From positions 82,265 through 146,264 of the forward strand of contig JBHLRO010000003.1 of assembly GCA_048882505.1 (NCBI GenBank): a DNA stretch of 64,000 bases, written 5' to 3'. Made by a program: the position numbers and the translations under genes. This document shows positions 14,052 through 34,792 of the stretch, one piece after another. Within the stretch, counting starts at the first letter, position 1. Each line of letters starts with the position of its first letter. Below the pieces are notes generated by a model. The model saw nothing but the letters and a program-made list of their open reading frames with translations. It searched no databases and had not been told where the DNA came from. Source of the DNA: Candidatus Thorarchaeota archaeon (GTDB lineage Archaea; Asgardarchaeota; Heimdallarchaeia; Hodarchaeales; Hodarchaeaceae).

Positions 14052-14099
14052 TAATTTTCTTGGTTTGCGCGTGTAGGAAAAATCAAAGTACAATTAGAG

Positions 14100-16107: not shown

Positions 16108-18702
16108 TTATGTCCGAGTGCTCTGGATAAACGATCTTGTTTTTTTCATTTCTTTCTCCCACTTTTTTCTTTCAGAACGTAGCTGAAAAATGTCTACATC
16201 TTTATAGATCAAATCTTCCTTTTTAGGGGGAATGTTATATTCAGTTCTCTCCTTTTCAGGAGTATAGATGAAAGAATTACCAAACTCGGCAATATTGGCG
16301 AAGAAACAGTAGGCATAAATCGATCTTCGGGCATCGAAATGCGCCGCTTTGAAATCAGCGGTAACTGGTGTAAAAGCTGGATTAAAAATAATGTCTACTG
16401 GTGGATCGAAGTTTTTCAACTCTGCTCTGAAATCCAGATCAAGAAAATCGCGACAGATTAAGATTGCCATTCTTCCGTACTCTGTGTTGCATACAATGGT
16501 GGTTCTGGGAAATTTATCAACGGATATGCCCTCCTTGATCTTTTTTCCAGCAATATAAATGATTGCGGGGTGATGCTTCTCTTGCTCCCACAGCACACCT
16601 TTTGGGCCAAACGCAATACTTACATTTCGATTTGTCGTTTGATCATGAAAAGACCCAGGAATTATGTACATTCCATACATCTGAGCAGATTTTGAGATAT
16701 CCTCTCTTAACAACTTGCAATTAAGGTCGATGATAAGCTCGGGGAATAGCAAAATGTTGATCCCCTCCGAGACAGCCCTCTGTATTTTATTTTTGATGGA
16801 ATTTCTGATGAGTTCAACTTTTTCTTTCCGTATATTAAATAAACCAGGAATTTTTGAATAAAAGAGTTCGCTTACAATATCATCAGTTTCTGAGATTCCT
16901 ATTTGCGCTATTCCGATTCGACATTTTTGTTTCTGAGTTCTAGCATGAGTGTGATATAGATCCTTATAGATCAGTCTGAATCTTGTTACCGTTTTAAACT
17001 TATTTTCTAAGACATCATTTATGGCGTTCGAAATGTATTCACGGAGGTTTAAAAGCTCAATCCTTTCCTGTAATGTCGAATTACTGATAAATAGTTCTTT
17101 CCATTCATCTAATTGACCTATAAGTTCTTCTTGCTGAATTAATAATTTCGAATGTATCAGTCCCAATCCTTTATCTTCAGCGATCGCAAGCGCTTTTTCA
17201 AGTAATTTTTTCGATAGATCAGATTTGCCTTCAATTAATGCAAGTCTTGCTTGAAGGGAATATAAGCTGACCAAGGTTGTAATTGATCTTTGTTTGTTTG
17301 CTACATTGGAAATCTGATCTAATAATTGTTGTATATCTAATATAATTGCCTCTTCTCCGGAATATTTCAGTTCATCTAATAATAATTCACAGAGATTTAC
17401 TTTGATCATAAACTCAATTTCATAGTCAAATCTGTCTTCCTTGATTTCTTGCAGAATCTGTTGAGCTTGAAATTTATAGACTGCTCTTTTTTTCTCTTTT
17501 AAAACGAGTGCCTGAGCTAACTTTTTTACAACATCTAACCATGGCCACCTCTCTACGTATTCATCTAGCTTCTGCTGTGACACGTCAATTTTTTGTTCAT
17601 TGTGGAGTTCCACATATGCCATGATTAAGTATAAATGAAGGATGGCCAGCTCAAAATCCAAGAAAGTATTTCTGGATTTGCATATTGATTCGTGAACATC
17701 GATTGCTTTGTTGAAATATTCAATGGCCTTCTCTAGTTCACCTTGGTGATAATGAACAGCGCCCAAATACCGAAAGGTAACACAATAACCATGGGGAACA
17801 TCTCGAGATGAAGATGGAGAATAATCCTTTAGAGCTTTATCATAATACTGAATTCCTTTCCTGAAATTTCCTTTTCCTTGATGGACTGAACCCATAAGAG
17901 TTGAAACTTCAGAAAGACCTATTTCATGTTCCAAATCATCAAAGATCTCAAGACTTTCTTCAGCACATCGTAATGCTGTGTCTAATTCCCCTTTATAATA
18001 GTGGATGTAACCTAGGGAATAATTGGACCAAGCGATATACTTGGTATTTCCTATAGCTTTACTGATTTCCAATTGTCTCTGTATATAGTCTTGCGCTTCG
18101 TCTAAACTTCCTCTGGCCCTCAATATCCAGCCTATATTATTTAATTGATAATAAATACCTTGTTTATGATTGATTTCCCTAAACAAGTTCAAACTTCTCT
18201 TGAAAAAATCTAAGGCCTTATCGAATTCACCAATAGAAATTTGAAACCCCCCCTTAAATGCCAATAATTCTCCTTCCCATTCCCGTATTTTTTGCCTGTC
18301 AGAATCATTCATCCTCGATAAAATAATGTCACACAATTCGACTTCTTCTGTAATCTCAGAAAATCTCCTTAATTTGTACAAGGTTTGTATTTTCGCATTT
18401 CGTGCTCCAAATTCTTGAACAAGATTAAGTTGTTCCAGGCGGGAATTGAGAATTTTTTCTAAAATCGATAATGCACCATCGTAATCACGTCGTGTCCGAA
18501 ATATGAGGCTCTTAAGTACTTCTCCTTCAATTCGATCCTTCTTCTCGAGTGTTTCAATTCTTGAGAGAGCATCATCTAGTTTCTCATCTTGGATTAATTT
18601 CTGAATTTCTTCCAAGCTCATAAGGATCGCCTCACCTAAAAAGAATCGACCGTAAATAAACAATATTCCTATAGTAACCAAAAACATCTCAACCACTGCC
18701 AA
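16108..18702 (-). CDS. Membrane-anchored TPR-repeat protein fused to a C-terminal carbon-nitrogen hydrolase (nitrilase-superfamily) domain (paralog A)
   Basis: An N-terminal TM helix (MAVVEMFLVTIGILFIYGRFFLG) is followed by about 500 aa of TPR-like helical repeats. The C-terminal ~290 aa carry the CN-hydrolase motifs: RIGIAQIGIS, ILLFPEL (Glu), WEQEKHHPA (Lys, compare yRKxHLf) and AILICRDF (Cys). This domain is about 75% identical to the C-terminus of the 31001-34792 protein. Confidence 0.6.
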   Translation of the reverse strand: MAVVEMFLVTIGILFIYGRFFLGEAILMSLEEIQKLIQDEKLDDALSRIETLEKKDRIEGEVLKSLIFRTRRDYDGALSILEKILNSRLEQLNLVQEFGARNAKIQTLYKLRRFSEITEEVELCDIILSRMNDSDRQKIREWEGELLAFKGGFQISIGEFDKALDFFKRSLNLFREINHKQGIYYQLNNIGWILRARGSLDEAQDYIQRQLEISKAIGNTKYIAWSNYSLGYIHYYKGELDTALRCAEESLEIFDDLEHEIGLSEVSTLMGSVHQGKGNFRKGIQYYDKALKDYSPSSSRDVPHGYCVTFRYLGAVHYHQGELEKAIEYFNKAIDVHESICKSRNTFLDFELAILHLYLIMAYVELHNEQKIDVSQQKLDEYVERWPWLDVVKKLAQALVLKEKKRAVYKFQAQQILQEIKEDRFDYEIEFMIKVNLCELLLDELKYSGEEAIILDIQQLLDQISNVANKQRSITTLVSLYSLQARLALIEGKSDLSKKLLEKALAIAEDKGLGLIHSKLLIQQEELIGQLDEWKELFISNSTLQERIELLNLREYISNAINDVLENKFKTVTRFRLIYKDLYHTHARTQKQKCRIGIAQIGISETDDIVSELFYSKIPGLFNIRKEKVELIRNSIKNKIQRAVSEGINILLFPELIIDLNCKLLREDISKSAQMYGMYIIPGSFHDQTTNRNVSIAFGPKGVLWEQEKHHPAIIYIAGKKIKEGISVDKFPRTTIVCNTEYGRMAILICRDFLDLDFRAELKNFDPPVDIIFNPAFTPVTADFKAAHFDARRSIYAYCFFANIAEFGNSFIYTPEKERTEYNIPPKKEDLIYKDVDIFQLRSERKKWEKEMKKTRSFIQSTRT

Positions 18703-18831
18703 TTGTGGAATCCCAGCAGAATTTTCAAACCAGTAGAGTGAGAAAGATCCAACAGATCCTAACTTCCATTCCCTCTATTCATATCGTAAAAACAGCTATT
18801 TAACTGACGGGGTGAATTTCGAAGAGAGATC

Positions 18832-20091
18832 GTGGTTACCATGTCCAAAAAGTCTCTTTTCGTTTTTTTCCTCGTAGTTAGTCTTGCTGGTTTGAATATA
18901 TTTCAGTTTTACTATTTCACAACCTTGCTTCCAGTAACTCCGCAAGAGGACGTACCACTCGATGTTGTAACAATTCTAAATAATAATAAGGCCGATTACA
19001 TCGGGAAAACGGTTACTCTAGATGGATATTATGTCGAAGGAGGATCCAATATATCCCTGCTCATTACTGAGCCAGTTATATTCGAAAATAATTCACTAAC
19101 ACCAAACAATTATCTGATAATAGGTGGTAATGTGCCATCATCACTACAAACACAGATAGGAGCGCAAGTACACCTTAAAGGGCGAATTACTTGGGCCAAT
19201 GAAACCGAAGGCTTGTTGGAAATTACCTATGGATCTCACTCACTTATTAGGGAAGGGGCATTGAATCACTTACAAAACAAGTTCATCGACACTTCCAAAC
19301 TTTATGATATTACCCAGTTTCCCTTCAACCAACGGAAATACGCTGTATTGATTAGTGGTGGGATTAAACCAGAAAAGGCTTACTCCAGGTATTGGAATGA
19401 TATCACTGCTATGTATTTCATTTTGACATGGTTATATGGCTATGATCCGCAGAACATCTATATCGTTTATAAGGACGGAATTCCCGAAAATGGCTTCGCT
19501 CCCGTTCATGGCCCCGCGACTCATACTTACCTGCAGACTGTGTTTACTGAACTTGAGAATAAGATGACCCGATCAGATAATTTATTCATTTACACCACTA
19601 ATCACGGCGGGAGTTCTGGTCTCAGTTTGTGGGGACCGATGGATCCCTACGCTCTTACTCCCAATGAGCTTAATAATATGCTTATGAATATTCAGTATAA
19701 TCAAGAAATCATAGTTATGGAACAGTGCAAATCAGGTGTCTTTATTCCCACTTTAAGTAAATCAGGCAGAGTTATCCTAACTGCTGCAAGTCCAATACAA
19801 TCTTCATACGGCTGCGACACAGAAGGGCCCTGGGATGAATTTGTTTATCATTTCATGAGCGCTGTTGCCGAACTAAAAATAAATGGAGACCCCGGCATTG
19901 TAAATTCGGATTTAAATAACGATGGCAAAGTCTCAATGTATGAAGCCTTCATGTATGCTAGTGAGCAAGACTCCCGTCTCGAAAATCCATATTATGATGA
20001 TGACGGTGACGGTAGCGGATTACCAGCGATTCTATTGAGTTTATTAGATCCGGCTGATGAGGGGGCGTTAGGTCAAAACACCTTTTTGTAA
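18832..20091 (+). CDS. Secreted or membrane-anchored C13 (legumain/GPI8-like) caspase-fold cysteine peptidase
   Basis: An N-terminal signal or TM segment is present. The His-Gly ... Ala/Gln-Cys catalytic dyad context matches legumain: IYTTNHGGSSGL and VMEQCKSGVF (compare EACESGS). Confidence 0.55.
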   Translation: MVTMSKKSLFVFFLVVSLAGLNIFQFYYFTTLLPVTPQEDVPLDVVTILNNNKADYIGKTVTLDGYYVEGGSNISLLITEPVIFENNSLTPNNYLIIGGNVPSSLQTQIGAQVHLKGRITWANETEGLLEITYGSHSLIREGALNHLQNKFIDTSKLYDITQFPFNQRKYAVLISGGIKPEKAYSRYWNDITAMYFILTWLYGYDPQNIYIVYKDGIPENGFAPVHGPATHTYLQTVFTELENKMTRSDNLFIYTTNHGGSSGLSLWGPMDPYALTPNELNNMLMNIQYNQEIIVMEQCKSGVFIPTLSKSGRVILTAASPIQSSYGCDTEGPWDEFVYHFMSAVAELKINGDPGIVNSDLNNDGKVSMYEAFMYASEQDSRLENPYYDDDGDGSGLPAILLSLLDPADEGALGQNTFL

Positions 20092-20263
20092 CCTATAACT
20101 AAATAGTTACAATGTGGGCAATCGGAATTCCAAAACCTGACGACCAATTAGAGAATCGCGAATTGACTCTTGGTAAATACTCACTGTGGGATTCAAGGCC
20201 AAGGGATTTCTCTATGTTGGCCCGAATCCGTTTGACGAGCTAGAGCCAACTCATTATAGGCCC

Positions 20264-21175
20264 CTAGTCTGAACGTTCTGCGGCTTTCTGCAAGTACCGA
20301 GGATGGTAATTTAAGAGATTGTAGAGAAATTTGTCAGAAGATCTTTCCCGTGAGCCTGTGGGGATTATAATATCTTCCAGTTTCTTTACTCGAAATTTTT
20401 TCTTTACAATATTGAAGTAATGCTGTTCCTGAAGAAGAAGCAAGTTACGGATTGATATCATAACCTCATCTACTATTTCCCGCGCTGTTTCATAGAATTC
20501 AGCTTTTGAATCATCCCATCCTCCAGTGCGAAAATAATCATCGAAGTATAGGGGCTTTCCAAAAGAAACGGACACAAACGCTTTGTATTTGGGAACCAGT
20601 CTACCGATTCCTAAAGCTTCAGCCGCCCCGTGGCAATAAAACGGGATAACTGGGACTTTTCCATTTAATTTAAGGATAACACGACCTACACCGGTCCGTC
20701 CTTCTTTCAATAGATTGAAGTAATCATGAAGTGGATGACTAAAGATTCTCTTTCCCTGGGGAGCGATCAAAACCGCCAATCCTTTCCTTAATAGGCGTAC
20801 TGCATAATCTAGTGCGACATTGGAATTTTCACGATATACGGGAAATGCCCCGAGCACTCGGACTAATCCAAAAAACGTGTTCCCATCCATAGCCTTTCCT
20901 GATGCCATGAAACCCAGCCTGGTCCGGTTTCCATACGGTTTAATGATTGCACTTCCCAGCAATAACGCATCAAGATGTGATCGGTGATTTCCACAAAATA
21001 TCACTGGATTACCCTCGGGAAGTTCAGAGGTATTTTCTAATCCACTCACATCGAACTGAAAGAAGTTATGGCAAAATTTCGGAACGACCAGAGCGGCAAA
21101 CCTAAATAAACTCCTCTGGATGAAGTTCCATTCGAGGTGGATTAAATTTGCAGGTAGTTCCATATAGGAAGTCAC
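20264..21175 (-). CDS. Lysophospholipid / 1-acyl-glycerol-3-phosphate acyltransferase family (PlsC-like)
   Basis: The HxxxxD acyltransferase motif is present as FCGNHRSHLDALLL, and the downstream PQGKR block fits the LPLAT family. Confidence 0.7.
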   Translation of the reverse strand: MTSYMELPANLIHLEWNFIQRSLFRFAALVVPKFCHNFFQFDVSGLENTSELPEGNPVIFCGNHRSHLDALLLGSAIIKPYGNRTRLGFMASGKAMDGNTFFGLVRVLGAFPVYRENSNVALDYAVRLLRKGLAVLIAPQGKRIFSHPLHDYFNLLKEGRTGVGRVILKLNGKVPVIPFYCHGAAEALGIGRLVPKYKAFVSVSFGKPLYFDDYFRTGGWDDSKAEFYETAREIVDEVMISIRNLLLLQEQHYFNIVKKKFRVKKLEDIIIPTGSRERSSDKFLYNLLNYHPRYLQKAAERSD

Positions 21176-21278
21176 CAGATCTGTACTTCATACGCTATTA
21201 AAGATTTTTTAGGATATTGACTCGGAATACGAATCGGATAAGCCATTTGTATTACCCAGTCTTTCGAGTTTTAACTTA

Positions 21279-22487
21279 TTAGCTATAAATGATTAATTCC
21301 TCTAAGGTTCGAGGATATTCCGTGACAATTTCTATTCCATCTGTTGTTATTACAATGGTGTCCGAGTGCCTAAAACCTCCTATAGAACGGTCATAAATTC
21401 CTGGTTCAACCGAAAAAACCATTCCAGGTTTTAGAAGTTCATCCATTCCGAGATCGAGAAAAGGGCGCTCATGACCTTCTAATCCGAGAGCATGGCCCGT
21501 GTGATGTTGAACTAAGTTTAACACACCAGAATCTTTAAAAACAGCACGTGTGGCCTTATCTACTTTGGATAAAGGTATCCCAGGCCCAAGTGTTTCAAAA
21601 GCAGCCTTCTGGGCGCGAACCATTATATCAAAGTAATCTTTCTGCTTTTTATTTGGCTCTCCCATAAACATGGTTCTTTCTAATTCCGAAAGATATCCTG
21701 CGACGTTTCCGCCTGCTCCCGTAACCAATGTATCACCTTTATGAAATACGGCATTGCGGGTCATTGCGTGAGGGATTGCTGAATAAGGTCCTATCTGTCC
21801 TCTGTAGCCTGCACCGCAGGGACGCGCGCCATACCCAATCGGCGAATAATCTGAACCAAGAGTTTCCCGCATACGTTTCGATGCTTCGTGAGAGGCGCGA
21901 AACGACACATCAATTTCATTTGCTCCGACCACAGTATAATCTTGTAACAATCGATGAGCCAAATTGCCCCATTTTGCACTTTCACGAATGGAGGCCAATT
22001 CATCTTCGTCTTTAATAATCCGCATGTCAGTAATAACGTCAGAGACGATTTTCACCGGAAATTTCAAAACATCACTGAAAGATGGACCTATATATCCCCA
22101 TTTACCTGGAGCTCCTGCGCCCTCTGCCCCAATGTTACCAGAAATCCTCAATTTGTCCTTCAGAAAAGATGCAAATTTGGTCATTGGGTGTACTGTGTCT
22201 GGATATTCAAAATAGCTTTCAACTTCCTTAACAGAAGGAACCTCCTCCTGGACGTGCTGTTTTTCGAGTTCTGGTACGAAAAAATTAATGGAAGGACTAC
22301 TCGTTACATTGGTACATATCAAAAAGAAAGGACGTTCGGTAGGTATTAAGACAAAGCCAGTCAAATAATAGATTGAGATGGGATTAAGGACTATAAAGTG
22401 CCGTAGTTCGTGTTCTTTGATGATAATCTTAAAAAACTGATCCCGACGTTCACTTAATCGCGATTGAGGAATTTTTATGGGTATCAT
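21279..22487 (-). CDS. M24 family Xaa-Pro aminopeptidase/prolidase
   Basis: Creatinase/prolidase pita-bread motifs are present: HHTGHALGLEGHE and VFSVEPGIY. The 402-aa protein also has the N-terminal creatinase-N-like domain. Confidence 0.8.
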   Translation of the reverse strand: MIPIKIPQSRLSERRDQFFKIIIKEHELRHFIVLNPISIYYLTGFVLIPTERPFFLICTNVTSSPSINFFVPELEKQHVQEEVPSVKEVESYFEYPDTVHPMTKFASFLKDKLRISGNIGAEGAGAPGKWGYIGPSFSDVLKFPVKIVSDVITDMRIIKDEDELASIRESAKWGNLAHRLLQDYTVVGANEIDVSFRASHEASKRMRETLGSDYSPIGYGARPCGAGYRGQIGPYSAIPHAMTRNAVFHKGDTLVTGAGGNVAGYLSELERTMFMGEPNKKQKDYFDIMVRAQKAAFETLGPGIPLSKVDKATRAVFKDSGVLNLVQHHTGHALGLEGHERPFLDLGMDELLKPGMVFSVEPGIYDRSIGGFRHSDTIVITTDGIEIVTEYPRTLEELIIYS

Positions 22488-22528
22488 GGCTAACTATATC
22501 CCTTTTGCTCAAAATATGACAGCTGTCG

Positions 22529-23044
22529 TTATAGGTAAGGTAGAACTACGTTCAAGCTTTGGATCAGGTTTTCTGGGGTCGCGATTGGCCGCACTTTGAC
22601 CGTTAAAAAGACTAGAAACCCGAGGAATAATGTTATTGTCCAACAAATAACCGTTGCAATCATCAATGGTCTGAAATTGATCAAAGTTCGCAAGCGTATT
22701 TCAAAACGTTTTACAGCGAAAGAAATGGTGATGAAAAGACTTAGTGCAATTGTAATTGATCCCATGGTCCAATGGGCAAAGGGAATCCACCGTCCAAGAG
22801 GATCGGCCAAAACTCGGGGGGCCGCTCTTAGTGCATTGGGCAGCATCACTAGCAACCAAACTGTCAAGTGTGCAATTGTCGCCCCATAGACCATCCAATG
22901 ATGCAGCGTGATGTTCAAGCGTCGTGCACCAAAATACCACCCAACGAATAAGCCACAGAAAAGGACAACCTCAACAATGAGCACCAATAAGGCGAGAGTC
23001 GGAATATTATAACCGTTGAGAACTAGATCTTGCACGAGCGTCAT
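22529..23044 (-). CDS. Small polytopic membrane protein (4-5 TM, DUF420-like)
   Basis: The 171-aa protein is hydrophobic throughout, with conserved His residues inside predicted helices. Confidence 0.4.
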   Translation of the reverse strand: MTLVQDLVLNGYNIPTLALLVLIVEVVLFCGLFVGWYFGARRLNITLHHWMVYGATIAHLTVWLLVMLPNALRAAPRVLADPLGRWIPFAHWTMGSITIALSLFITISFAVKRFEIRLRTLINFRPLMIATVICWTITLFLGFLVFLTVKVRPIATPENLIQSLNVVLPYL

Positions 23045-23054
23045 AATTAACCCA

Positions 23055-23789
23055 TTATTTCTCAGTAACTATCTTAGAAATACTTCCTCTTGTTGTAAAT
23101 TGACAAGATTCAATGGTTGCTCTATCCCCTTTATGACTTGTAATTATGGCTGATCCAATCATTCCCCATGGACAGAATCTGACATTTGATTTTTGATAGG
23201 CTTCTGATTTATGTATGTTAGCAAAATAACATTTGTTTGCGGCGATTCGAACGGAAGTCCCTTTTATTCTCACACTGGTATATTGTACAAATCTTTTTTC
23301 TCTGATATAGTCCAGGTAGGCATTCAATTTTTCTTCTAACGTTTTTTCCTCCCCAAGAAAGACATCTGGTAGGTAGGAGGACAAGATATCTGCTATTCGA
23401 CTAAAAACATACGTCTTGATCGCAGTTTCTCCTAAGATGTCGATAAAGACGCTTTCATATCCGAAGATCGCAGCTCTTAGCTGCCAAATCTCCTCTAATG
23501 AGAACATTACGCTCTTTTTCAGTTCACGTGCGCGAGAAATCTTTAGTTTAAAGTCATCCAACCATGATCTTAGGTCAGATACCAATCGTTCGGGGTCAGG
23601 GGCGGCCTTATTGAAAATGCCCGGCAAAAATTCTCGAACATAATAGACCATTTTTGGCAATACATAATCCTCTACAACATTTGGGCCAATTAATTCCATA
23701 CCTACCGCTTCATAGGCGTCTAAAATACCGCCATATAAGAAAACTGCATCCAATCTCCCCTTTTGACCCTCTTTAATAGCATGTGACAT
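23055..23789 (-). CDS. Hypothetical protein with a C-terminal V4R-like (4-vinyl reductase/Bet3-related) Cys motif
   Basis: The C-terminal KCYFANIHKS...RFCPWGMIGSAIITSHKGDRATIESCQFTTRG fits the V4R pattern C..C.f..G.l.G.l....vE..C..G. It abuts the tandem longin-like gene. Confidence 0.4.
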   Translation of the reverse strand: MSHAIKEGQKGRLDAVFLYGGILDAYEAVGMELIGPNVVEDYVLPKMVYYVREFLPGIFNKAAPDPERLVSDLRSWLDDFKLKISRARELKKSVMFSLEEIWQLRAAIFGYESVFIDILGETAIKTYVFSRIADILSSYLPDVFLGEEKTLEEKLNAYLDYIREKRFVQYTSVRIKGTSVRIAANKCYFANIHKSEAYQKSNVRFCPWGMIGSAIITSHKGDRATIESCQFTTRGSISKIVTEK

Positions 23790-23872
23790 TTATCGATCCC
23801 ATAAAAAGAGGTTATACCTTCTTACCCCTTCTAAATGTTAGATGGTTTAAGTTTTTGTTAGGAATTGAAGAT

Positions 23873-25149: not shown

Positions 25150-26613
25150 TTAATCGGCATTAGAGACAGGAATCGAAATAGAATCGGTTATAATAGACAG
25201 TTCCTCGTGAGAAATCCCGACTGACAGTAGAAATTCATGAATTCCTCCCTGAGTATCTATAAAATCTAAAAGCGAGCGAATGAAGATAGAATCCATCTCT
25301 GGAGCAGAAACCAAATAATCTAAAATAATATTTACTTCCTCTGATCCGAGAAGGAGGTGTAAAAGAGCGATAATTATTCCAGTTCGATCCTTCCCGCCGT
25401 AGCAATGAATAATCAAGGGATAATTTTCCGGATTCGCCAGTATAGCAAATAAATCCCTAATTTGGCCCTTTCGGTTTTCCAAAACCCAAATATAGAGATC
25501 CTCGAGGGCAATATCAACCCCTGATTCAAGGTTAGGCCCATCTTCGTCCAAACCAACTCCAGGAATGAGGGGGATTTGGTAGTATCGTACCTTCGATATG
25601 AAATCCTTAGAATATGGACGCTTTTGAATTTCAAGATTTGTCTGAAGATTGATTATCGTCTTTATTCCAATTTTATCTATCCATTCAATGAAATATGGAT
25701 CGTCGATATAGTTATGTAACGTTGCAGAGCGAAAAATCATATTTTTGCGAATTTTGGTAGGATTAAAACGAGCCAAATCGCGAAGATTCCAAAAGTAATC
25801 TCTTCGATATATTTTATCACAAAAAGACTTGATTTTATCTACACTTAACCTTAGGTCGAGCCTCCCTTCAGCCTCAATTAGAATCCTGTCAAATACATGC
25901 TTCAACCTTAATTTTGCTTCATTCATATCTTTGAGACGGATGCTACCTCCCAAATACCTGAATAGTATTTGTTCATCTCTTGAAAGGTAGCTGGTTGCGA
26001 AAAAATCAGGAGGACGTGTGAATTCAGTTTTTTCATCATTTCGCAGAGTAGAAATAAGTTCTACGAGCCCTTGAAGAGCCAAACCATAGTAATAATAGGC
26101 TTGGTACCCATCGCTGATCCTGTGGGCATTGGAAAAGGCCTCGAATGCAAAAAGGAAATCCTGTACTTTATCGTATATCATATCTTCCTCTGATTCTAAT
26201 CCAGGCCTCCATTCCATCAAGATGTCGGTCAAACTGCCATCCTGATCATACAGGATATATGTACTCGATGTTATAGATTCCTCAAAGCTTTTAAGATCAG
26301 TAGTATATTTTAATTCTAGTTTTAAATACTCTTCCCCAAGGTAGAGAACAACACGTAATGGATTCTTGTATTCCAGTTGAAATGTTATGTGAGGATTGAT
26401 TTTATCAAGAATAGCAGAATTAATGTCTGGAATATTTGCCGAATCCTTTGTGATAAGGATCAGCCCCGTAGAAAGCCCCATGTTTACACCAACATAGTCA
26501 GGAGCCTTTGTTAATGCCAAACCTGAGATTTGGGGATCCTTCTTGGCACTGTAAACAAGAATTTCCAAAACTGGATTTAATATGGTTGAGGGATAAAGCT
26601 TGTGATCCAACAT
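25150..26613 (-). CDS. Two-domain protein: unknown N-terminal domain (~300 aa) plus C-terminal Y_phosphatase3-type protein tyrosine/dual-specificity phosphatase
   Basis: The CX5R P-loop is present as HCYGGKDRTGIIIALLHL. The upstream FRSATLHNYIDDPYFIEWIDKIGIKTIINLQTNLE is typical of the Tyr_Phosphatase_3 family. Confidence 0.6.
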   Translation of the reverse strand: MLDHKLYPSTILNPVLEILVYSAKKDPQISGLALTKAPDYVGVNMGLSTGLILITKDSANIPDINSAILDKINPHITFQLEYKNPLRVVLYLGEEYLKLELKYTTDLKSFEESITSSTYILYDQDGSLTDILMEWRPGLESEEDMIYDKVQDFLFAFEAFSNAHRISDGYQAYYYYGLALQGLVELISTLRNDEKTEFTRPPDFFATSYLSRDEQILFRYLGGSIRLKDMNEAKLRLKHVFDRILIEAEGRLDLRLSVDKIKSFCDKIYRRDYFWNLRDLARFNPTKIRKNMIFRSATLHNYIDDPYFIEWIDKIGIKTIINLQTNLEIQKRPYSKDFISKVRYYQIPLIPGVGLDEDGPNLESGVDIALEDLYIWVLENRKGQIRDLFAILANPENYPLIIHCYGGKDRTGIIIALLHLLLGSEEVNIILDYLVSAPEMDSIFIRSLLDFIDTQGGIHEFLLSVGISHEELSIITDSISIPVSNAD

Positions 26614-26667
26614 TGTTCCTAACCTCTAAAATGATACACCTAAAACGATCCACGGTTTAAGAGCATT

Positions 26668-27795
26668 CTATTCTCCTGGAAAGTTACCTAATGCAGTTTC
26701 GTTTGCTGCACGAGCAACAAACGGGATAATCGTACCCAATGCTCCAAAACGTTGATCTTGGGTTTGTTTATTAACGAAACGTATATAGATCTGAGCAATA
26801 ATCACAGTAAGACGAAACAGACCGAGTGTATGGTAAAATTGGACATTGCTTACAGCTATCCCGCTTTTCGCTTCATACCTTTCGATTAACTCTTGACGAG
26901 ATGGCCACCCGATACTTTCGTGGGTCGGCATCGTTGATAAGACCTGAAGGTAAGGAGGATCAGTGGGATCAGTCCAATAGGTAAGTAGCGCACCTAGATC
27001 GGACAAAGGGTCCCCAAGAGTGCACATATCCCAATCAAAAATTGCAACTATCTGTCCAGAGCTATCAACCATGACATTGTCAAGTTTAAAATCATTGTGG
27101 ACAAGGGAAAAATGCTCAGTCTTCGGGATGTTCTTCCTTAACCAATTATAAACTTGATCAACATCTTCATTGTCTTCGGTTTTCGCCCTATGCCATCTTC
27201 GATACCATCCTTCCACTTGGCGCTTGATAAAGCCCTCAGGCCGCCCTAACTCCGATAATCCCAAACGTTCGTAGTCTACGTTATGGAATTCGACCAAACG
27301 ATCAACTAATTGATTGCTGATCTCGGTAGCAAGTTTTGGTGAAGGAGTTAATCCTTTGGGAAACGATCTACGGATAACAAAGCCCTTTTTCCGCTCCATT
27401 ATAAAAAACGGGGCACCTATGATTGACAGATCTTCACAAAACATGTAGGCCTTAGGAGCATAAGGAAATGCCTTATGTAGCACAGAAAGCACTGTATATT
27501 CCCGATTCATATCGTGCGCCGATTTCGCTACTGGGCCGAGGGGAGGACGACGTAGAACATATTCCTTACCTTCAAAGTCAAGGAGATATGTCAAATTTGC
27601 TGCCCCACCCCAAAACTGTCTTACCGTTAAAGATGATTTCGTACCAGGGAGTTTATCAATGAGGTAACGAGCAAGAGATTTTGTATCAAAGGTTTCGTCA
27701 TCACGGACAGAAATAGTATCATTTTCCGTTCGCTCATCGGGAATCACGTTAAATATACCACCGATTTGGCTGAACGAGGTCGGGCTAGCAATCAA
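26668..27795 (-). CDS. Aminoglycoside-phosphotransferase-like (APH) kinase-fold protein, ACAD10/11 N-terminal-domain-like
   Basis: The Brenner catalytic motif is VHNDFKLDNVMV and the DFG-like motif is IFDWDMCTLGDP. The gene overlaps the downstream acyl-CoA dehydrogenase by 4 nt. Confidence 0.75.
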   Translation of the reverse strand: MIASPTSFSQIGGIFNVIPDERTENDTISVRDDETFDTKSLARYLIDKLPGTKSSLTVRQFWGGAANLTYLLDFEGKEYVLRRPPLGPVAKSAHDMNREYTVLSVLHKAFPYAPKAYMFCEDLSIIGAPFFIMERKKGFVIRRSFPKGLTPSPKLATEISNQLVDRLVEFHNVDYERLGLSELGRPEGFIKRQVEGWYRRWHRAKTEDNEDVDQVYNWLRKNIPKTEHFSLVHNDFKLDNVMVDSSGQIVAIFDWDMCTLGDPLSDLGALLTYWTDPTDPPYLQVLSTMPTHESIGWPSRQELIERYEAKSGIAVSNVQFYHTLGLFRLTVIIAQIYIRFVNKQTQDQRFGALGTIIPFVARAANETALGNFPGE

Positions 27796-29015
27796 GATTC
27801 GTATTGGCTTAAAATTCGCTTTGCAACCGAAAATTTGTGCACCTCGTCGGGGCCATCATAAATACGAGCACCCCTTTCGAGGGCATACCAAAGCCCAAGG
27901 GGAGTCTGATTGGTCATCCCCAGTGCCCCATGGACTTGAATTGCCCGATCCAAGACCCTTTGAAGAGTATTGGCCACAAAGAACTTGATCAGCGAAATAT
28001 CAATACGGGCTGCGTAAACGCCTTCAGCATCAATCTTATGGGCCGTATCCAGAACCAATAAACGAGCAGCGTTTATTTCTGCCCTGCTTTCTGCAATCCA
28101 ATTACGGATAGTCTGCTGGATAGCCAAAGTTCGTCCTGGCGCAACTTCCCTGTCAACTGCTCTACGACACATCAGGTCAAAAGCCCTTTCACATATGCCA
28201 AGCCATCGCATACAATGATGGATACGTCCTGGGCCCAAGCGTTGTTGGGCTATTACGAAACCCATTCCTTCATCACCCAGTCGATATTTTTGTGGAACCC
28301 TACAATTATCGTATTTTATCTCTCCGTGACTGGCCCAAGCTTCTCCAACATGACCCATTACGGGAATGTTTCTAACCAAGTTGAATCCTGGCGTATCTGT
28401 TGGAACAATGATTTGGCTTGCCTTAAAATGACGTTTTTCCTGTTCAGGGTTTGTAACCGCCATTACAATTGCAAAAGCTGCCCCGTCGGCTGATGAAGTA
28501 AACCATTTGTGACCATTGATGACATAATCTTCCCCGTCTTTTTCAGCAGTTGTCTCGATCCAGGTAGGATTTGACCCTGGGCAATCTGGTTCTACAATTG
28601 AAAAACAGCTTCTAATATTTCCGCTTAATAATGGCATTAGGTACTTCTCTTTCTGCTCATCAGTACCGTATTCAATAAGGATTTCCATATTGCCTGCATC
28701 AGGCGCCTGACAGTTGAATAAATAATGGCCCCAGGGTGATCTTCCTAATTCCTCGCTTAAAATCCCGTGTTCAAGTAATGTCAGACCCAATCCGCCATAC
28801 TTTTTTGGGATTTGAGGTAGCCATAAACCCAGGCCTTTAACCTCTTTTCTCAGGTTGTTAAGAGTCGGAAGCATTTCCCGAAACGATTTTCCTGCAAATT
28901 GGGCTTCTAACGGTATAGCTTTCTTTGTTATAAATTCACCTACTTCCTCCAAAATTGATTGGAATTTCTGTGACATCGTTAGATTAAGTATACTCGTGAT
29001 CATGTTCAGAATCAC
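27792..29015 (-). CDS. Acyl-CoA dehydrogenase (ACAD10/11-like)
   Basis: The 407-aa protein has ACAD N-terminal, middle (CFSIVEPDCPGSNP...YVINGHKWFTS) and C-terminal helical domains. It is translationally coupled to the APH-like gene. Confidence 0.85.
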   Translation of the reverse strand: MILNMITSILNLTMSQKFQSILEEVGEFITKKAIPLEAQFAGKSFREMLPTLNNLRKEVKGLGLWLPQIPKKYGGLGLTLLEHGILSEELGRSPWGHYLFNCQAPDAGNMEILIEYGTDEQKEKYLMPLLSGNIRSCFSIVEPDCPGSNPTWIETTAEKDGEDYVINGHKWFTSSADGAAFAIVMAVTNPEQEKRHFKASQIIVPTDTPGFNLVRNIPVMGHVGEAWASHGEIKYDNCRVPQKYRLGDEGMGFVIAQQRLGPGRIHHCMRWLGICERAFDLMCRRAVDREVAPGRTLAIQQTIRNWIAESRAEINAARLLVLDTAHKIDAEGVYAARIDISLIKFFVANTLQRVLDRAIQVHGALGMTNQTPLGLWYALERGARIYDGPDEVHKFSVAKRILSQYES

Positions 29016-29324
29016 CTGGATTATAGGAGAAGAAGGAGGATTATGAACCTTATGCTAGTTCCGTTAGATCAGAATGGCCATTTATTTCACCTAGCAAAAC
29101 GATAGCACCCTTATTTATCAACTCAGATTTCCTGCTGAACCTGTTTTATGACAATAGGCGAAGGGGATTTCAATTTCTTAAAATTTAATTGGAGGATAAT
29201 AGTAGCATGGAACCAGGCAGATAGCTTCATAATTTCGCCCATTACTGGCTTTGGTCGGGTTTTCCTAAAATGCCCGATCGGTCTGGATAAAAAGCGAATC
29301 ATTATTGTAGGATCAGGTGGTTAC

Positions 29325-29669
29325 ATGTCGAAAATTGACGCGTTCAATCGATACCGAGACAAAATGAACGAGATCATACTGGAAAAATCAAATCTTGAGA
29401 TCAAGCGGTTCTTCAATCTAGATACTCGTACTTATTATGATGGTGCTCTCTCAGCCAAGACAAAGGAACTTCTTGGCCTTGTTGCGTCCATGGTTCTGCG
29501 TTGCAATGACTGTATTACGTACCATATACTCCAATGCCGACAGCTTGGTACAACAGAAGCCGAATTTTATGAAGCATTCACAGTTGCTCTTGTTGTGGGC
29601 GGATCCATCGTTATTCCCCATCTGAGAAAGGCGGTGGAGATGTTGGAAGAGGCACTAGAGACATCCTAA
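29325..29669 (+). CDS. Carboxymuconolactone decarboxylase / AhpD-like family protein
   Basis: The CMD/AhpD-like motif is CNDCITYHILQCRQLGTTEAEFYEAFTVALVVGGS. The start is set at the internal ATG at 29325. The tracked ORF begins at 29148, but its first 59 codons look non-coding. Confidence 0.6.
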   Translation: MSKIDAFNRYRDKMNEIILEKSNLEIKRFFNLDTRTYYDGALSAKTKELLGLVASMVLRCNDCITYHILQCRQLGTTEAEFYEAFTVALVVGGSIVIPHLRKAVEMLEEALETS

Positions 29670-29695
29670 GGCGAACACTCGTCCATTCCCAATTT

Positions 29696-30586
29696 TTACA
29701 GTTTTATCGTCTCTGAACTTCCGGTTTCTGCTATCGACTTATTTCCTTCAACCCTGAAAAACAGTCTATTACGTGTACCAAATGACACCTTTTTCTTTAT
29801 ATAATTGTAATCATTGGTTTTAAGGCGATCCTCCACCTCAATAAAGATCTTAGTATTTAAAAGTTGAAAATAAATGTCAGGAAAGGCGGTGTACGATGAT
29901 CCCTCTTCCAGAAGTTTTATCAAGAATTCGAATCCTTTTTTTCCGCCCACCAATTCTGTTTTTTGACCTCTAAACCCTTTTATACTTTGTAGTTTGTTCT
30001 GATAGTACTGTTCATCATACTGAGGGGGATTACAGACTACAGCATCGAATTGTGAGATTGATTTGAACACATTGATCAAGATTTGATTTGGGTTTTCCAC
30101 ATACCGAAGGGAAATTCGGTTTTGCAAGGAATTGCAGACAATGTTCTCTCTCGCTGATAAATATGCGGTCTTACTACATTCTGTCCCCACCACCTTACAT
30201 CCCATAGCGGCAAACATTAATGCCAATATCGCTGATGCTCCTGTTCCTACTTCCAACACTTTTTTGGCATGGTATTGAAGAATCCATTCCACAAATGCCC
30301 AACGATTGCAGACTGTGGGGACCAAAAACTCTTTTGGAAGAGTGAATTCTAGATTCAAAAAGTCCCTGAATATTGCCTGATTGTATAATAACAAAGTTTC
30401 TGGATCTCCCAGGTCAATATGGCCACTCTTACTTAATGTTTTTTTCTTTAATTCTGGCAAAATGTTTAGGAAATCCTTGATTTGAAGTCCACATCGTTTT
30501 TGCGGAATTGGATAGGAGGCCATGGCATTCACTTCAATAAGCGGATTTGTCAATATCAGCGGTAGAGAATATGGTTTATGCTGCAA
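29696..30586 (-). CDS. RlmF/METTL16-family (Methyltransf_10) RNA N6-adenine methyltransferase-like
   Basis: The N-terminal HIDLGDPETLLLYNQAIFRDFLNLEFTLPKEFLVPTVCNR matches the RlmF/METTL16 N-terminus. Motif I is VLEVGTGASAIL, and motif IV is VVCNPPQY (an NPPF/Y-type). Confidence 0.6.
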   Translation of the reverse strand: MQHKPYSLPLILTNPLIEVNAMASYPIPQKRCGLQIKDFLNILPELKKKTLSKSGHIDLGDPETLLLYNQAIFRDFLNLEFTLPKEFLVPTVCNRWAFVEWILQYHAKKVLEVGTGASAILALMFAAMGCKVVGTECSKTAYLSARENIVCNSLQNRISLRYVENPNQILINVFKSISQFDAVVCNPPQYDEQYYQNKLQSIKGFRGQKTELVGGKKGFEFLIKLLEEGSSYTAFPDIYFQLLNTKIFIEVEDRLKTNDYNYIKKKVSFGTRNRLFFRVEGNKSIAETGSSETIKL

Positions 30587-30844
30587 ATCTTTTATAATTT
30601 TGGAGAAGTTGAGAGCAAATAAGTATTCATTGTGGGGGAGATTCCATAACCTATGGAATCAAACGCCTAGGGGTTGCCATTACGGGTTAAAATCTTGTTT
30701 AATCACGCCCCTTCAAAATAATCATTGAGTCACATAAAGGTTTTCATTGACTCATCCAAGATTGTTATGGGATTACTCTCAGAATTATTAATTAGGCAAT
30801 GTTTGGTGAATAAACTCGCTGTTTTCGATCTTATCAAGTAAAAA

Positions 30845-30862
30845 AGATATTTATATTTATTG
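30845..30862 (+). promoter_or_regulatory. Candidate TATA-like element in the long intergenic region upstream of the TPR/CN-hydrolase paralog B
   Basis: GATATTTATATTTATTGG lies about 140 nt upstream of the ORF start at 31001. The true start may be downstream of that. Confidence 0.15.
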
Positions 30863-31000
30863 GCAGTAGTCTCCCAACAATAAAAAACAGGGAATTAGCT
30901 AAATTCGAAAAAATCATATCAACTCTAATGTATTTGGTGTTTATCCTTCTCGATATATCGACCATTACAAAGAAGTAAGGTATAGCAGGTATGAAGAACC

Positions 31001-34000
31001 TTGATGGAGAAAGCAAGGGGTGAGGAGAAGAACCTCAATTGGATTAAAGCCGCCATTCTTTATGGCCAAGCGAAAGAAGAGTATTTGAAGGATGAAGAGG
31101 TGGAATTAGCAGCTAACGCCTGTTACAGACAAGGATATACTTATACCAGATGTGCGGAAACGGCAGGAGGGGCCAATGAATTTGAAGAACATTTTCAGTC
31201 TTCTATTGAATCATATAATGAAGCTGCAGATCTTTTTTCTTGGATAGATGCTTTGCCAGAAAAATGGGCATGCTTGGCAGAATCTGCGTTTTCTGCTGCT
31301 TTTATTAGTAAATCAATTCCTGAAATGCTAGAAGCATTTGAGAATGCCTACGAACTTTTCTTAGAGGCAAATAAAGGGTATTCAATAAGGAACGATACCA
31401 AACACTATATTCGGACTTATGTTCGTGCTGCAATGACGCTCTCAAATCTTATCCCTTACAGAAACAACCCAGATGAAATTAATCGTGTACGTCAAGAAGG
31501 TAGAGAGATAATCGACAAAATTTGGAACATTGCAATAGAACAGAGAGATGCCTTTTCACTTTCACAATCTCTCTTTGCTGACCATCTTTTGAAGTATTAT
31601 GAGTGGTTTATAGGATTATCAAAAAAGGACCATTATTGGAAAAGAAGCGAGGAAGAAACTATCAACAAACTTGAAGAAGCGATTCCAATCATTGAGGCGA
31701 ATGATAATCCTACGTACCTTGAAATGAGCTATCACGTCGCAGGTTTGACTAACAATACATATGGATTTCAGTTTGTAGAAAACGATAAAGAACAGAACAA
31801 ATTTGCGGAACTAGGGTTCAGTTATTTTAGGAGGGCCGAATCACTGAATAAAAAAACCAAGAATAAATTGCTTAATACCTTAACAACAGCCTGGACCGAT
31901 TGGTGGGCATTATTCTGGGGTAGAGTCGAGTATCTACAAAATCGAATTCAGGACGATCTCGCAGCTTTAGAAAACAATGCAAAAATAATGTATCAGTCCT
32001 TTACTAACTTCAATTTTTATGCAAATTTCTTACCTACGTTTGCTTATGCGAATTTTGCTCAGAGGAGCTTTTTTTCTAGTTCTCAAAGACGTCAGTTTGC
32101 GGAAATGGCAAATAAATATGCCTTAGAATGTTTACGGATAATTCCCTCTTCCCCAATATCTTTATGGCCCCTACAAATGCAAACGTGGGCATATTCCCAG
32201 TTGACTATATTGGCTTCAGATGCACCAGAGCGGCAAATGAATGCCCGAATTATGCTTCAGTACGCGGAACGTGGGGAAAATTTCGCGAAAAACTATGAAG
32301 GAGGATTTGCCAGAGCCTCGGCTTTCTCTTCTCTTTATCGGTGTTACAAAACTTTGGCAGAAATTTCTAAAGATGAGGAATATCGAATTGAATACCTCAC
32401 TAAGGCAATAGATGCAATGGAGAAATATGCGGATTACGCTCTTGAATCACGGGTGGGAGTTATTAATGCACAATTTCGAATAGGACTTTTATATGGGGAA
32501 CTGTATGAAATAACAGGTCAATCAAACCTTTTAAAGAAGTTAAGGGACCTATTTCAAAGCATATTAAATGACTGTAACGAGAGGGGATATTTTTCTTACT
32601 CAGCTGCCGCTTCAGAGAACTTAGCTCATATAGAGGATAAACTGGGTAATTTCAATCTTTCTACGGATTATTATGTTCGAGCCAGAGAAAAACATACCCA
32701 ATCTTTAGAAAAAATTGAATATAGACCATTAAGGGAAAAAATCGTCGAGAAAATCAACTATACTAATGCATGGGCATTAATTGAGAGTGCTAAAACGCAT
32801 CATAAAAGAGAAGATCAACAAAAAGCGGAAGCGGAATATTTAACGGCCTCTAAAATTCTCATAAATCTGCCTGACCATTCCTATGAAGCACCATACTTCG
32901 AAGCTCTAGCTTTGCAAGAAAAAGCCGAATATCTAAGTTCGAAAGAAAACTATCAGAATTCTCAATCAGAGTTTCTAAAAGGTCAAATGGCTTTTACAAA
33001 TGCGTTGAATGCTTTTAATCAAGCTATAAAGGATATTGACAACAACAAAGAGCGAGATCGCATTAACAAGATGATTTCCCTTACCAATCTTGGGATTAGT
33101 TACTGTTCTGCCCGTTCCTCTATTGATAATGCCCAAATTCTCTGGAAAAAAGGAGATCTTATCCCAGCTGCAGAGCAAATGAAATCAGCGGCTTCCCTGT
33201 TCAAGGAAACGCCAATAAGCTCTGAAACTAGGAGAGAACAACGGAAATTTAATGCCTTTAATTATTTATGTCAGGCATGGGAGAATATGATAACTGCAGA
33301 GAAGTACGCGGATTCTGAAAAGTACCAAAGTGCCTCAGGATTATTTAAAAGCGCTAACGACCTGCTACTAGACAGTAGGATAAAATTCTTGGCTTCAGGC
33401 AATGCATTTTTTTGTCAAAGTTTAGCAAATGGATGTAAATTTGACGAATCAAATGATCTCAAGATTAAAGAAGAATTGTTCATTGAAATCAAGTCCCTCC
33501 TAAGAAACGCCGCCATACTATATCAAAAAGGAGATTTCATTACCGCTTCAGGTTGGGTTTTAGCTACGTCCACTTACTTCGATGCCACCTGGCACCTAAT
33601 TAAGGCAGATAAAGAAATCGAATTGGATAAGAAACAAACTCTATTGAGGATAGGATCGAGCTACCTAAAGTCTGCAGCTGGACTTTTCAGAAAACACGGT
33701 TTCGTTGAAAAAGAGAATGAAGTTCAGACTCGTATCTCTATGGTTGAAAAAGAAGAGCAAATCTTGGTTACCGCGATTAACACTATCAAAGAACCTTCAA
33801 TCTCTAGAAGCACAAAAAGCATGAGTTCTTCAACCAATCTTGGAGTTTCAAGCTTGCCGTCAGGGATGAGCGAAATCCGAAAGTTTACAGAAGAAGCGAG
33901 AAGGGTTTCAATCCTAAGAGAATACCAATTAATCTATGAAGACAATCTTCCAGATTTCCCAAGGAGTCAGAAACGGCATTTTAAAGTAGGCATTGCCCAA

Positions 34001-34792
34001 ATTGGGATTTCAAATAGTGGAGATTTCCTGAATGAATTCTATGACAGAAAAAATAACGGATTAATTAGACTAAAACAAAATAAAATTGAATTCATGAGAT
34101 CTAAAGTAAATGATATGATTACAAGGGCACACGCGAACGAAGTCGATATTCTCATCTTCCCTGAACTCTCTATTGATCTAAATTATGAAATTCTCTATAA
34201 TGAAATTTTGAATCTTTCGAAATCGTACGGAATGTACATAATTCCTGGATCGTATCACGATGAAAGTACAAAATATAATCAGAGTGTAGTTATTGGTCCT
34301 GATGGTATCCTATGGAGACAAAATAAGCACATACCTGCCGTAATTCACCTAGATGGAAGAAAAGTGACCGAGGAGATCGATGTTGGTGGCCCAGTTCATA
34401 AGACATTGATCTTTAACACGGAGTACGGCCGTATTGCAATAGCAATCTGCAGAGATTTCTTAGATATGGATTTGAGGGTAGAACTCAAGAACTCGAAACC
34501 CCCTGTAGATCTAATAATTAATCCGGCATTCACTCCAGTAACGGAGGATTTCAAAGCTGCTCATTTTGATGCTCGAAGATCAATTTATGCATACTGTTTC
34601 TTTGCCAATGTTGCAGAGTTTGGAAATTCTCTTATATTTACCCCTGAAAAGGAACGAAAAGAAAGAATCATGCCACCTAAAAAAGAGGGAATTATTATCA
34701 AAGAAGTAGACTTATTTACACTTCGTTCAGAAAGAAAAAGATGGGAAAATGAACGAAGAAAGACAAAATCATTTATTCAAAGTACACGGTAA
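31001..34792 (+). CDS. Large cytoplasmic TPR/helical-repeat protein fused to a C-terminal carbon-nitrogen hydrolase (nitrilase-superfamily) domain (paralog B)
   Basis: About 970 aa of helical repeats precede the CN-hydrolase motifs: FKVGIAQIGIS, ILIFPEL, RQNKHIPA and AIAICRDF. The C-terminal ~290 aa (about 33930-34792) are near-identical in motif order to the 16108-18702 protein. Confidence 0.6.
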   Translation: MMEKARGEEKNLNWIKAAILYGQAKEEYLKDEEVELAANACYRQGYTYTRCAETAGGANEFEEHFQSSIESYNEAADLFSWIDALPEKWACLAESAFSAAFISKSIPEMLEAFENAYELFLEANKGYSIRNDTKHYIRTYVRAAMTLSNLIPYRNNPDEINRVRQEGREIIDKIWNIAIEQRDAFSLSQSLFADHLLKYYEWFIGLSKKDHYWKRSEEETINKLEEAIPIIEANDNPTYLEMSYHVAGLTNNTYGFQFVENDKEQNKFAELGFSYFRRAESLNKKTKNKLLNTLTTAWTDWWALFWGRVEYLQNRIQDDLAALENNAKIMYQSFTNFNFYANFLPTFAYANFAQRSFFSSSQRRQFAEMANKYALECLRIIPSSPISLWPLQMQTWAYSQLTILASDAPERQMNARIMLQYAERGENFAKNYEGGFARASAFSSLYRCYKTLAEISKDEEYRIEYLTKAIDAMEKYADYALESRVGVINAQFRIGLLYGELYEITGQSNLLKKLRDLFQSILNDCNERGYFSYSAAASENLAHIEDKLGNFNLSTDYYVRAREKHTQSLEKIEYRPLREKIVEKINYTNAWALIESAKTHHKREDQQKAEAEYLTASKILINLPDHSYEAPYFEALALQEKAEYLSSKENYQNSQSEFLKGQMAFTNALNAFNQAIKDIDNNKERDRINKMISLTNLGISYCSARSSIDNAQILWKKGDLIPAAEQMKSAASLFKETPISSETRREQRKFNAFNYLCQAWENMITAEKYADSEKYQSASGLFKSANDLLLDSRIKFLASGNAFFCQSLANGCKFDESNDLKIKEELFIEIKSLLRNAAILYQKGDFITASGWVLATSTYFDATWHLIKADKEIELDKKQTLLRIGSSYLKSAAGLFRKHGFVEKENEVQTRISMVEKEEQILVTAINTIKEPSISRSTKSMSSSTNLGVSSLPSGMSEIRKFTEEARRVSILREYQLIYEDNLPDFPRSQKRHFKVGIAQIGISNSGDFLNEFYDRKNNGLIRLKQNKIEFMRSKVNDMITRAHANEVDILIFPELSIDLNYEILYNEILNLSKSYGMYIIPGSYHDESTKYNQSVVIGPDGILWRQNKHIPAVIHLDGRKVTEEIDVGGPVHKTLIFNTEYGRIAIAICRDFLDMDLRVELKNSKPPVDLIINPAFTPVTEDFKAAHFDARRSIYAYCFFANVAEFGNSLIFTPEKERKERIMPPKKEGIIIKEVDLFTLRSERKRWENERRKTKSFIQSTR

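Follow-up and report, generated by a model that had tools for sequence, protein, structure and literature searches.

Two genes of a Candidatus Thorarchaeota archaeon (Hodarchaeales; contig JBHLRO010000003.1, positions 82,265 to 146,264, a stretch of 64,000 nucleotides analyzed whole and called the window below) encode large proteins in which an N-terminal repeat array of tetratricopeptide (TPR) or TPR-like type is joined to a C-terminal carbon-nitrogen (CN) hydrolase module of the nitrilase superfamily. We read these two genes, A and B, with about even confidence as two classes of a modular sensor-effector family that extends across the Asgard archaea. In sequence comparisons the module groups with effector nitrilases (DRT1/UG1, UG5 and CARF-nitrilase) and not with the two catabolic CN-hydrolases tested. 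An earlier reading, made from the sequence only, knew of no characterized TPR-CN-hydrolase fusion, and we likewise found no description of one in the literature on Asgard nitrilases, CN-hydrolases or TPR proteins, or on nSTAND-nitrilase fusions. The fusion is routine in annotations of Asgard metagenome-assembled genomes (MAGs), as “carbon-nitrogen hydrolase family protein” or “predicted amidohydrolase”, which is a domain label and not a known function. Nitrilase effectors on defense proteins are already known; the partners, the lineage and the conserved tail described here are new.

The nitrilase module and its nearest relatives

Three open reading frames (ORFs) singled out by the sequence-only reading are present as it described them: gene A on the minus strand (16108–18702, 864 aa as the maximal ORF from the first TTG), gene B on the plus strand (31001–34792, 1263 aa from a TTG) and gene C on the minus strand (56237–57790, 517 aa). 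The CN-hydrolase module occupies positions 16111–16980 of A (residues 575–864; matched by PF00795 and by PADLOC models) and 33923–34789 of B (residues 975–1263). The C-terminal parts of the two proteins align without gaps over 289 aa at 57% identity (BLASTP, E = 2e-112), far beyond chance. They had been called near-identical, which overstates a value lying near the floor of the family (56–93%). A search of the window for a third nitrilase copy found none.

Both proteins exceed the gathering score of the Pfam CN_hydrolase family PF00795 (23.2 bits), A with 24.5 bits and B with 40.7 bits, while their orthologs score 26–37 bits, and the alpha-beta-beta-alpha sandwich fold of the nitrilase superfamily is present. 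The four CN-hydrolase motifs quoted earlier can all be found in the translations, and the Glu-Lys-Glu-Cys catalytic set is intact in both A (Glu655 at 16738–16740, Lys709 at 16576–16578, Glu724 at 16531–16533 and Cys750 at 16453–16455, minus strand) and B (Glu1055 at 34163–34165, Lys1109 at 34325–34327, Glu1124 at 34370–34372 and Cys1150 at 34448–34450, plus strand). In alignment with Nit2, the Lys and the Cys fall on its K112 and C153; the second Glu lies within one position of its Nit2 counterpart and the first belongs to the FPE motif. All four residues are invariant in a 36-sequence alignment (A1), and Glu, Lys and Cys are retained in 128–129 of 130 modules. Because its catalytic residues align with Nit2 and are kept in nearly all of the 130 modules, assignment of the module to the nitrilase-superfamily hydrolases is sound, at 16–19% identity to any solved enzyme.

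Two further features of the module lie outside the catalytic motifs. Nearly all complete members end in LRSERKKWE, 8–11 variable residues and FIQSTR, followed by 0–3 residues, a tail seen only in this family; in A it comprises FIQSTR plus one residue (T) at 16111–16131 on the minus strand, and in B it lies at 34772–34789 on the plus strand. One block, NPAFTPVT.DFKAAHFDARRSIYAY (34520–34591, residues 1174–1197 of B, with an equivalent in A), is conserved more strongly than any other part of the module and may be an oligomer or partner interface. The block and the tail, together with at least one degenerate paralog that has lost both Glu and Cys (P0168), could be taken to mean that the module is a noncatalytic oligomerization or scaffold module, its nitrilase fold serving as an assembly platform like the core of the DRT1 filament. 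The retention of Glu, Lys and Cys in all but one or two of the 130 modules, and the invariance of the second Glu in alignment A1, argue instead for selection on catalysis, and we give this scaffold role a close to negligible probability.

The kinship of the module is apparent from models of defense-system proteins. A and B reach 50–55 bits (E = 1e-14 to 1e-16) on the PADLOC models RT_UG5-nitrilase, CARF_nitrilase and RTasNitrilase, bit scores that are not strictly comparable with those from Pfam, and the E values of their matches to these models span 1e-9 to 1e-16 overall; the A module gives 3.5e-14 with CARF_nitrilase and 1.2e-10 with RT_UG5-nitrilase. The negative controls, only two plasmid-borne CN-hydrolases from catabolic operons, gave no match and 13.5 bits on the PADLOC models. 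We also took the 75 nearest nonfamily matches of at least 250 aa from an exhaustive search of 1.84 billion representative proteins; at E ≤ 1e-5, 57 of them match RTasNitrilase, 51 RT_UG5-nitrilase, 42 CARF_nitrilase and 28 Drt1a. When compared by sequence with the Protein Data Bank, the C-terminal half of the module matches DRT1 (9yfd) alone (E = 0.01), in an alignment that reaches DRT1 residue 1220. This end point falls inside residues 1218–1221, the domain-swapped C-terminus that in DRT1 covers the active site of the neighboring protomer; the DRT1 nitrilase is both effector and tetramer core, has an unknown substrate and is separated from the reverse transcriptase by an alpha-helical repeat domain (PMC13275509). 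Reverse-transcriptase-associated nitrilases form a clade apart from other nitrilases and are probably immune proteins, their substrate again being unknown (PMC9226505).

With DRT1, UG5 and the reverse-transcriptase-associated nitrilases, A and B share a C-terminal nitrilase carrying a full catalytic tetrad on a large multidomain protein. Unlike DRT1 they have no reverse transcriptase or DNA-adduct switch, the partner being a TPR array, and they carry the FIQSTR tail. No reverse transcriptase or CARF domain was detected in A or B with Pfam or PADLOC, and neither gene has a fusion or operon link to one or sits in a defense island; A and B lie among Asgard housekeeping genes, whereas DRT1 and UG5 are found in bacterial defense islands. 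CARF-nitrilase, an ancillary effector of type III CRISPR systems (PADLOC CARF_m7--CARF_nitrilase), combines a sensor with the same kind of nitrilase and is the best or second-best PADLOC match (∼50 bits), but its sensor is a CARF domain that binds cyclic oligoadenylate, whereas A and B have a repeat array and no CRISPR context. Nit2/omega-amidase, NitFhit, formamidase and N-carbamoyl-D-amino-acid amidohydrolase show only 16–19% identity and are stand-alone metabolic enzymes without a sensor or FIQSTR.

Repeat arrays and interchangeable partners

The sequence-only reading placed TPR arrays at both N-termini, a description that holds in canonical form for A and must be loosened for B. In A the array spans 16981–18621 on the minus strand (residues 28–574; Pfam and 22 aligned A-type orthologs) and includes a MalT-like TPR region, with Pfam matches to TPR_12 (1e-27) and TPR_MalT (7e-20). 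The corresponding region of B (31001–33787, plus strand, residues 1–929) has no significant Pfam TPR match of its own, the best being TPR_12 at E = 0.035. TPR_12 is matched in 19 of 24 B-type orthologs, MIT in 10 and SNAP in 4, and hhalign joins the B-type to the A-type array with 94% probability. The AlphaFold2 model of the B N-terminus is an all-helical solenoid of ∼34 consecutive helices (predicted local distance difference test, pLDDT, mostly 80–95), for which Foldseek returns the long TPR scaffolds Ctr9, Ski3, IFT-A (IFT139), separase, OGT and SPINDLY. On these profile and model comparisons the B array is a divergent TPR-like alpha-solenoid.

The N-terminal parts of A and B give no BLASTP alignment with one another, in agreement with the earlier statement that they have diverged. 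Gene C, proposed as a third, TPR-only paralog, is indeed a remote relative of the A array (23% identity over ∼390 aa, E = 3e-15, BLASTP) and also matches 25 A-type arrays of other genomes. It ends at the point where the linker of A to its nitrilase module begins, and a search for a nitrilase remnant in C found none.

Between solenoid and module, B has a linker of ∼45 residues (33788–33922, plus strand, residues 930–974) modeled with low confidence (pLDDT 23–40) and lying directly before the enzyme module. It carries the conserved motif NTIKEPSISRST, with conserved columns at ∼921–958 of alignment A2. This motif is modeled as disordered, and its composition is reminiscent of the C-terminal FIQSTR tail.

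The N-terminal transmembrane anchor ascribed to A arises when the ORF is translated from its earliest potential start, and we reject it. The three closest A orthologs (43–46% identity) start at A residue ∼30, and in ∼30 A-type orthologs the N-terminus is a hydrophilic TPR helix, with a hydrophobic segment in none. The probable start is the ATG at 18621 (M28, giving 837 aa), with a Shine-Dalgarno-like GGTGAGG 9 nucleotides upstream. A hydrophobic N-terminus would require initiation at M6 or at the TTG that opens the ORF; one public gene call does use M6 (position 18687), which leaves a small chance of a short hydrophobic leader on A. We treat the anchor as an artefact of ORF extension, and likewise the suggestion built on it, that one membrane-anchored and one soluble copy serve compartment-specific targets. 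For B, the start is most likely the ATG at 31004, because an identical NCBI protein (P0121) has 1262 aa. Full-length B orthologs of 1261–1289 aa (43–67% identity) occur in MAGs labeled Thorarchaeota, Lokiarchaeota and Hodarchaeales.

Beyond the two TPR classes, the module is joined to a GTPase-like class, beta-helix transmembrane receptors, a STAND ATPase and bacterial alpha/beta-hydrolases. In the receptor-like members (P0165 and P0161), a signal or transmembrane segment precedes a NosD/beta-helix ectodomain longer than 1000 aa, after which come a transmembrane helix and a cytoplasmic module. In three of the sampled contexts (L002:14128–15201, L086:3773–5965 and L089:10578–12158), a NosD/beta-helix gene of its own is found no more than ∼5 kb from a nitrilase gene, which may be chance. 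In P0145, a metagenomic protein of 1090 aa found on several contigs, a complete module including FIQSTR is inserted in an AAA_16 STAND ATPase, between the Walker A motif and a Walker-B-like LLIFIDDLH, and is followed by a helical region and Abhydrolase_1. The GTPase-like class (L012:8252–10864; also L008, L011, L027, L032, L044, L045 and L073), from Promethearchaeota-labeled and other archaeal MAGs, comprises in order an N-terminal domain of ∼120 aa, a P-loop (GEDGVGKTT) with a weak Arf match (E = 0.005), the last ∼250 aa of a B-type array and the nitrilase module; by eye, its N-terminal domain (ILKIFIIGPGG...ISGFL...FAKEI) looks like longin or roadblock. The next clade out contains LRR-nitrilase, HEAT-nitrilase, nitrilase-nSTAND3-PUA (P0230) and AriA/AbiEii-like ATPase-nitrilase proteins. 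Judged from domain content, this partner set is that of sensor-effector proteins.

The arrays are exchangeable in the other direction as well. In P0138 and P0139 a RING-like finger of eight Cys/His residues (CIVH..CPTC..CNTC..CWSC) replaces the nitrilase after a B-type array, and in P0142 an Ig-like domain and a KaiC-type ATPase take its place after a related array. A profile search with the N-terminal region found no C-terminal partners of the B-type array beyond these RING-like and KaiC variants.

The combination of a repeat sensor with an enzymatic effector also recalls MalT and the antiviral Avs-type STANDs, the A array matching the MalT-like TPR region, and two relatives, P0145 with its AAA_16 domain and the outgroup P0230 with nSTAND3, join this nitrilase to NTPases. 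The difference is that the central P-loop NTPase of STAND and NLR proteins is absent from A and B: no NTPase or NOD domain was detected by Pfam in A, B or the 24 B-type arrays. Moreover, the repeats of A and B are followed by the effector, which most STANDs carry at the N-terminal side instead.

The arrangement of A and B led the sequence-only reading to propose a protein-directed amidase or acylase, and an OGT-like form of this idea deserves consideration, in which the TPR superhelix would recruit a protein or peptide and feed it to the nitrilase for deamidation (as by Nta1) or acylation (as by Lnt). OGT and SPINDLY do have a long N-terminal TPR superhelix followed by an enzyme, and both are Foldseek matches of the B model. 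The likeness is one of analogy, as the catalytic fold of OGT is unrelated, and the TPR of OGT lies directly against the active site, in contrast to the long low-confidence linker of B. The similarities of the module point elsewhere: it shows no specific similarity to the Nta1 and Lnt branches, which are the least similar members of the superfamily, and its closest relatives are the defense-type effector nitrilases. In the beta-helix receptor homologs, furthermore, the N-terminal domain lies across the membrane from the module and therefore cannot hand it a substrate. The analysis brought up no support for a protein amidase, and we consider a substrate-recruiting enzyme of this kind unlikely; what survives of the protein-amidase model is an OGT-style analogy, to which we assign little weight. 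A sensor-switched enzyme is more likely than a protein-trimming amidase because the nearest relatives of the module are nitrilase effectors of bacterial anti-phage systems.

Distribution, divergence and genomic setting

The module is encoded at 285 loci in species-representative genomes. Among the best 80 of these, which were inspected, 39 are from Promethearchaeota (Loki), 14 from Thor-, 8 from Hod-, 7 from Hermod-, 1 from Heimdall- and 1 from Odinarchaeal genomes, with 6 from archaea without a finer label and 4 from bins labeled Bathyarchaeota or Pacearchaeota, probably mis-binned Asgard contigs. A module-only search returned 186 proteins, all the named ones being Asgard, and the exhaustive protein search yielded 49 clusters at E < 1e-30. 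Full-length members are proteins of 500–1800 aa that almost always carry the module at the extreme C-terminus. The dominant size classes, ∼850–890 aa (A-type) and ∼1275 aa (B-type), are the two found in the window. Several genomes have two to four of the best 80 loci, with tandem arrays of up to three genes.

The module and its partner have diverged at different rates. Modules group mostly by class, 58 of 65 having a nearest neighbor of their own class, yet identity within the two TPR classes (0.67–0.69) barely exceeds that between A-type and B-type modules (0.64), no pair falling below ∼0.56 across all classes and phyla. Between tandem paralogs, arrays are 44–48% and modules 67–70% identical, so the module changes far more slowly than the N-terminal array.

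Outside the Asgard archaea, high-GC bacterial members such as Sandaracinus amylolyticus WP_053232411.1 have an alpha/beta-hydrolase fused to the module and keep an F[IV]QSTR tail; the Sandaracinus gene adjoins a TetR gene, a context that is uninformative. Four remote plasmid homologs (20–26% identity) were found, and the two inspected are ordinary CN-hydrolases in catabolic operons with TRAP-transporter and aldolase genes. A scan of IMG/VR viral contigs with family patterns found no member, and a viral origin was rejected on this basis.

Within the window, A and B are flanked by beta-oxidation genes (thiolase, a FadB-like fused 3-hydroxyacyl-CoA dehydrogenase/enoyl-CoA hydratase and acyl-CoA dehydrogenase) and a purine-biosynthesis operon (12864–16085, 27792–29015 and 36710–42100). 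A legumain-like Peptidase_C13 gene (18832–20091) is divergent from A, and a gene at 25150–26613 encodes a 487-aa Y_phosphatase3 protein with ∼270 N-terminal residues lacking an assignment. Other neighbors are genes for an M24 peptidase, an acyltransferase and a methyltransferase. Rfam and tRNA searches of the window gave zero matches.

It had been proposed to look for conserved synteny and co-occurrence with the legumain-like and phosphatase genes. These and the other window neighbors recur only in one near-identical genome (L003), which is syntenic with mostly 85–98% protein identity. We clustered the ORFs of 81 related loci, taking every one of 90 aa or more, and the best neighbor cluster was present in 9 of the 81. 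We therefore reject the operon or co-occurrence model and, with it, a conserved operon partner. Several copies per genome, tandem arrays and the lack of a conserved partner gene fit a self-contained single-protein system.

The same observations bear on whether A and B are ordinary metabolic nitrilases or amidases for nitrogen scavenging or detoxification, the array being a localization or stability scaffold. The hydrolase labels of public annotation given above and the housekeeping genomic contexts agree with such a role, as does the Sandaracinus homolog with its TetR neighbor and its fusion to an esterase-type hydrolase, and Heimdallarchaeial nitrilases have been interpreted as part of nitrogen metabolism (PMC11193907). 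However, the operon partners of such enzymes, transporters and downstream enzymes, are absent, no neighbor cluster exceeding 9 of 81 loci, and A and B match defense-type models that the tested metabolic CN-hydrolases do not. Unlike catabolic amidases, this family has many paralogs per genome with differing sensor-like partners of 500–1500 aa (receptors, STAND or GTPase-like switches), and an invariant C-terminal tail with a 56% identity floor across paralogs is atypical of a catabolic enzyme. Taken together, these features make a purely metabolic function very unlikely.

A possible sensor-gated effector and its meaning for Asgard archaea

The reading we favor, at roughly even odds, is that of a sensor-gated nitrilase effector that requires oligomerization and acts on a small molecule. 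We infer the following course. The TPR solenoid would be a sensor or regulatory scaffold, a ligand-binding regulator to which a protein or peptide trigger binds, and binding would relieve autoinhibition or bring nitrilase modules together. The module would stay inactive until it oligomerizes, a requirement of nitrilases at large and notably of DRT1, and the FIQSTR tail, which lines up with the C-terminus of DRT1, may act in trans as a lid that completes the active site of a neighbor. The active enzyme would then hydrolyze a nonpeptide C-N bond of a small molecule and so alter cell physiology, either by arresting growth or by depleting a metabolite or signal. As to whether the trigger is a virus or other invader or an endogenous state, we lean slightly toward a conflict or stress role.

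Several observations weigh against this reading, some of them against a dedicated antiviral role in particular. The similarity to DRT1 is weak (E = 0.01–0.06 by sequence, and only 1e-4 with the Drt1a models), and the control for defense-type specificity consists of two metabolic enzymes only. Neither A nor B has an NTPase, reverse transcriptase or CARF switch. Gating by oligomerization and the role of the lid are inferred, and the tail and the NPAFTPVT block are poorly modeled by AlphaFold2 (pLDDT 44–53, monomer models only), the block at ∼50 being the least confident part of the monomer and the tail staying below 50. Against a dedicated antiviral role, B-type orthologs are conserved over their full length at 43–67% identity across Asgard lineages, which looks like a vertical, constrained gene and not like a fast-turnover immune gene, conserved neighbors are lacking, and the scan of IMG/VR viral contigs found no family member. 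According to Pfam, the neighbors in the window and in eight other sampled contexts are mostly housekeeping genes (including beta-oxidation, purine synthesis, FEN1, CDC48, ribosomal protein S19, ETF and thymidylate synthase) with no defense-island signal, and there were no PADLOC matches among the tested window neighbors. Finally, the substrate is unknown even for the characterized relatives.

A bolder version of the sensor-effector reading, which we regard as rather unlikely, is that Asgard archaea would possess a lineage-wide, chromosomally fixed pattern-recognition repertoire, mostly without an NTPase. Interchangeable sensors (TPR solenoids, beta-helix surface receptors, GTPase or STAND switches) would converge on one invariant nitrilase “executioner”, which would assemble through its invariant interface and FIQSTR, possibly into mixed oligomers of paralogs, and destroy an essential amide-bearing metabolite, amounting to innate immunity or programmed dormancy. 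If this holds, innate immunity or dormancy of such a kind would exist in the prokaryotes most closely related to eukaryotes, and a way to the substrate of DRT1-type nitrilases would be opened.

Nitrilase effectors (DRT1, UG5 and CARF-nitrilase) are among the few classes of defense effectors whose substrate is still unknown, and the same kind of module is seen here outside reverse-transcriptase and CRISPR settings, fused to repeat sensors, receptors and switches, in the archaeal group closest to eukaryotes. Should the sensor-effector reading be wrong, the family would still represent the most abundant uncharacterized CN-hydrolases of Asgard genomes. If it is right, the family would supply biochemists with many natural forms of the effector on a single polypeptide, correct the present assignment of these genes to nitrile or amide nitrogen metabolism in Asgard metagenomics, and add a conserved, multi-paralog signaling or immunity family to the Asgard inventory.

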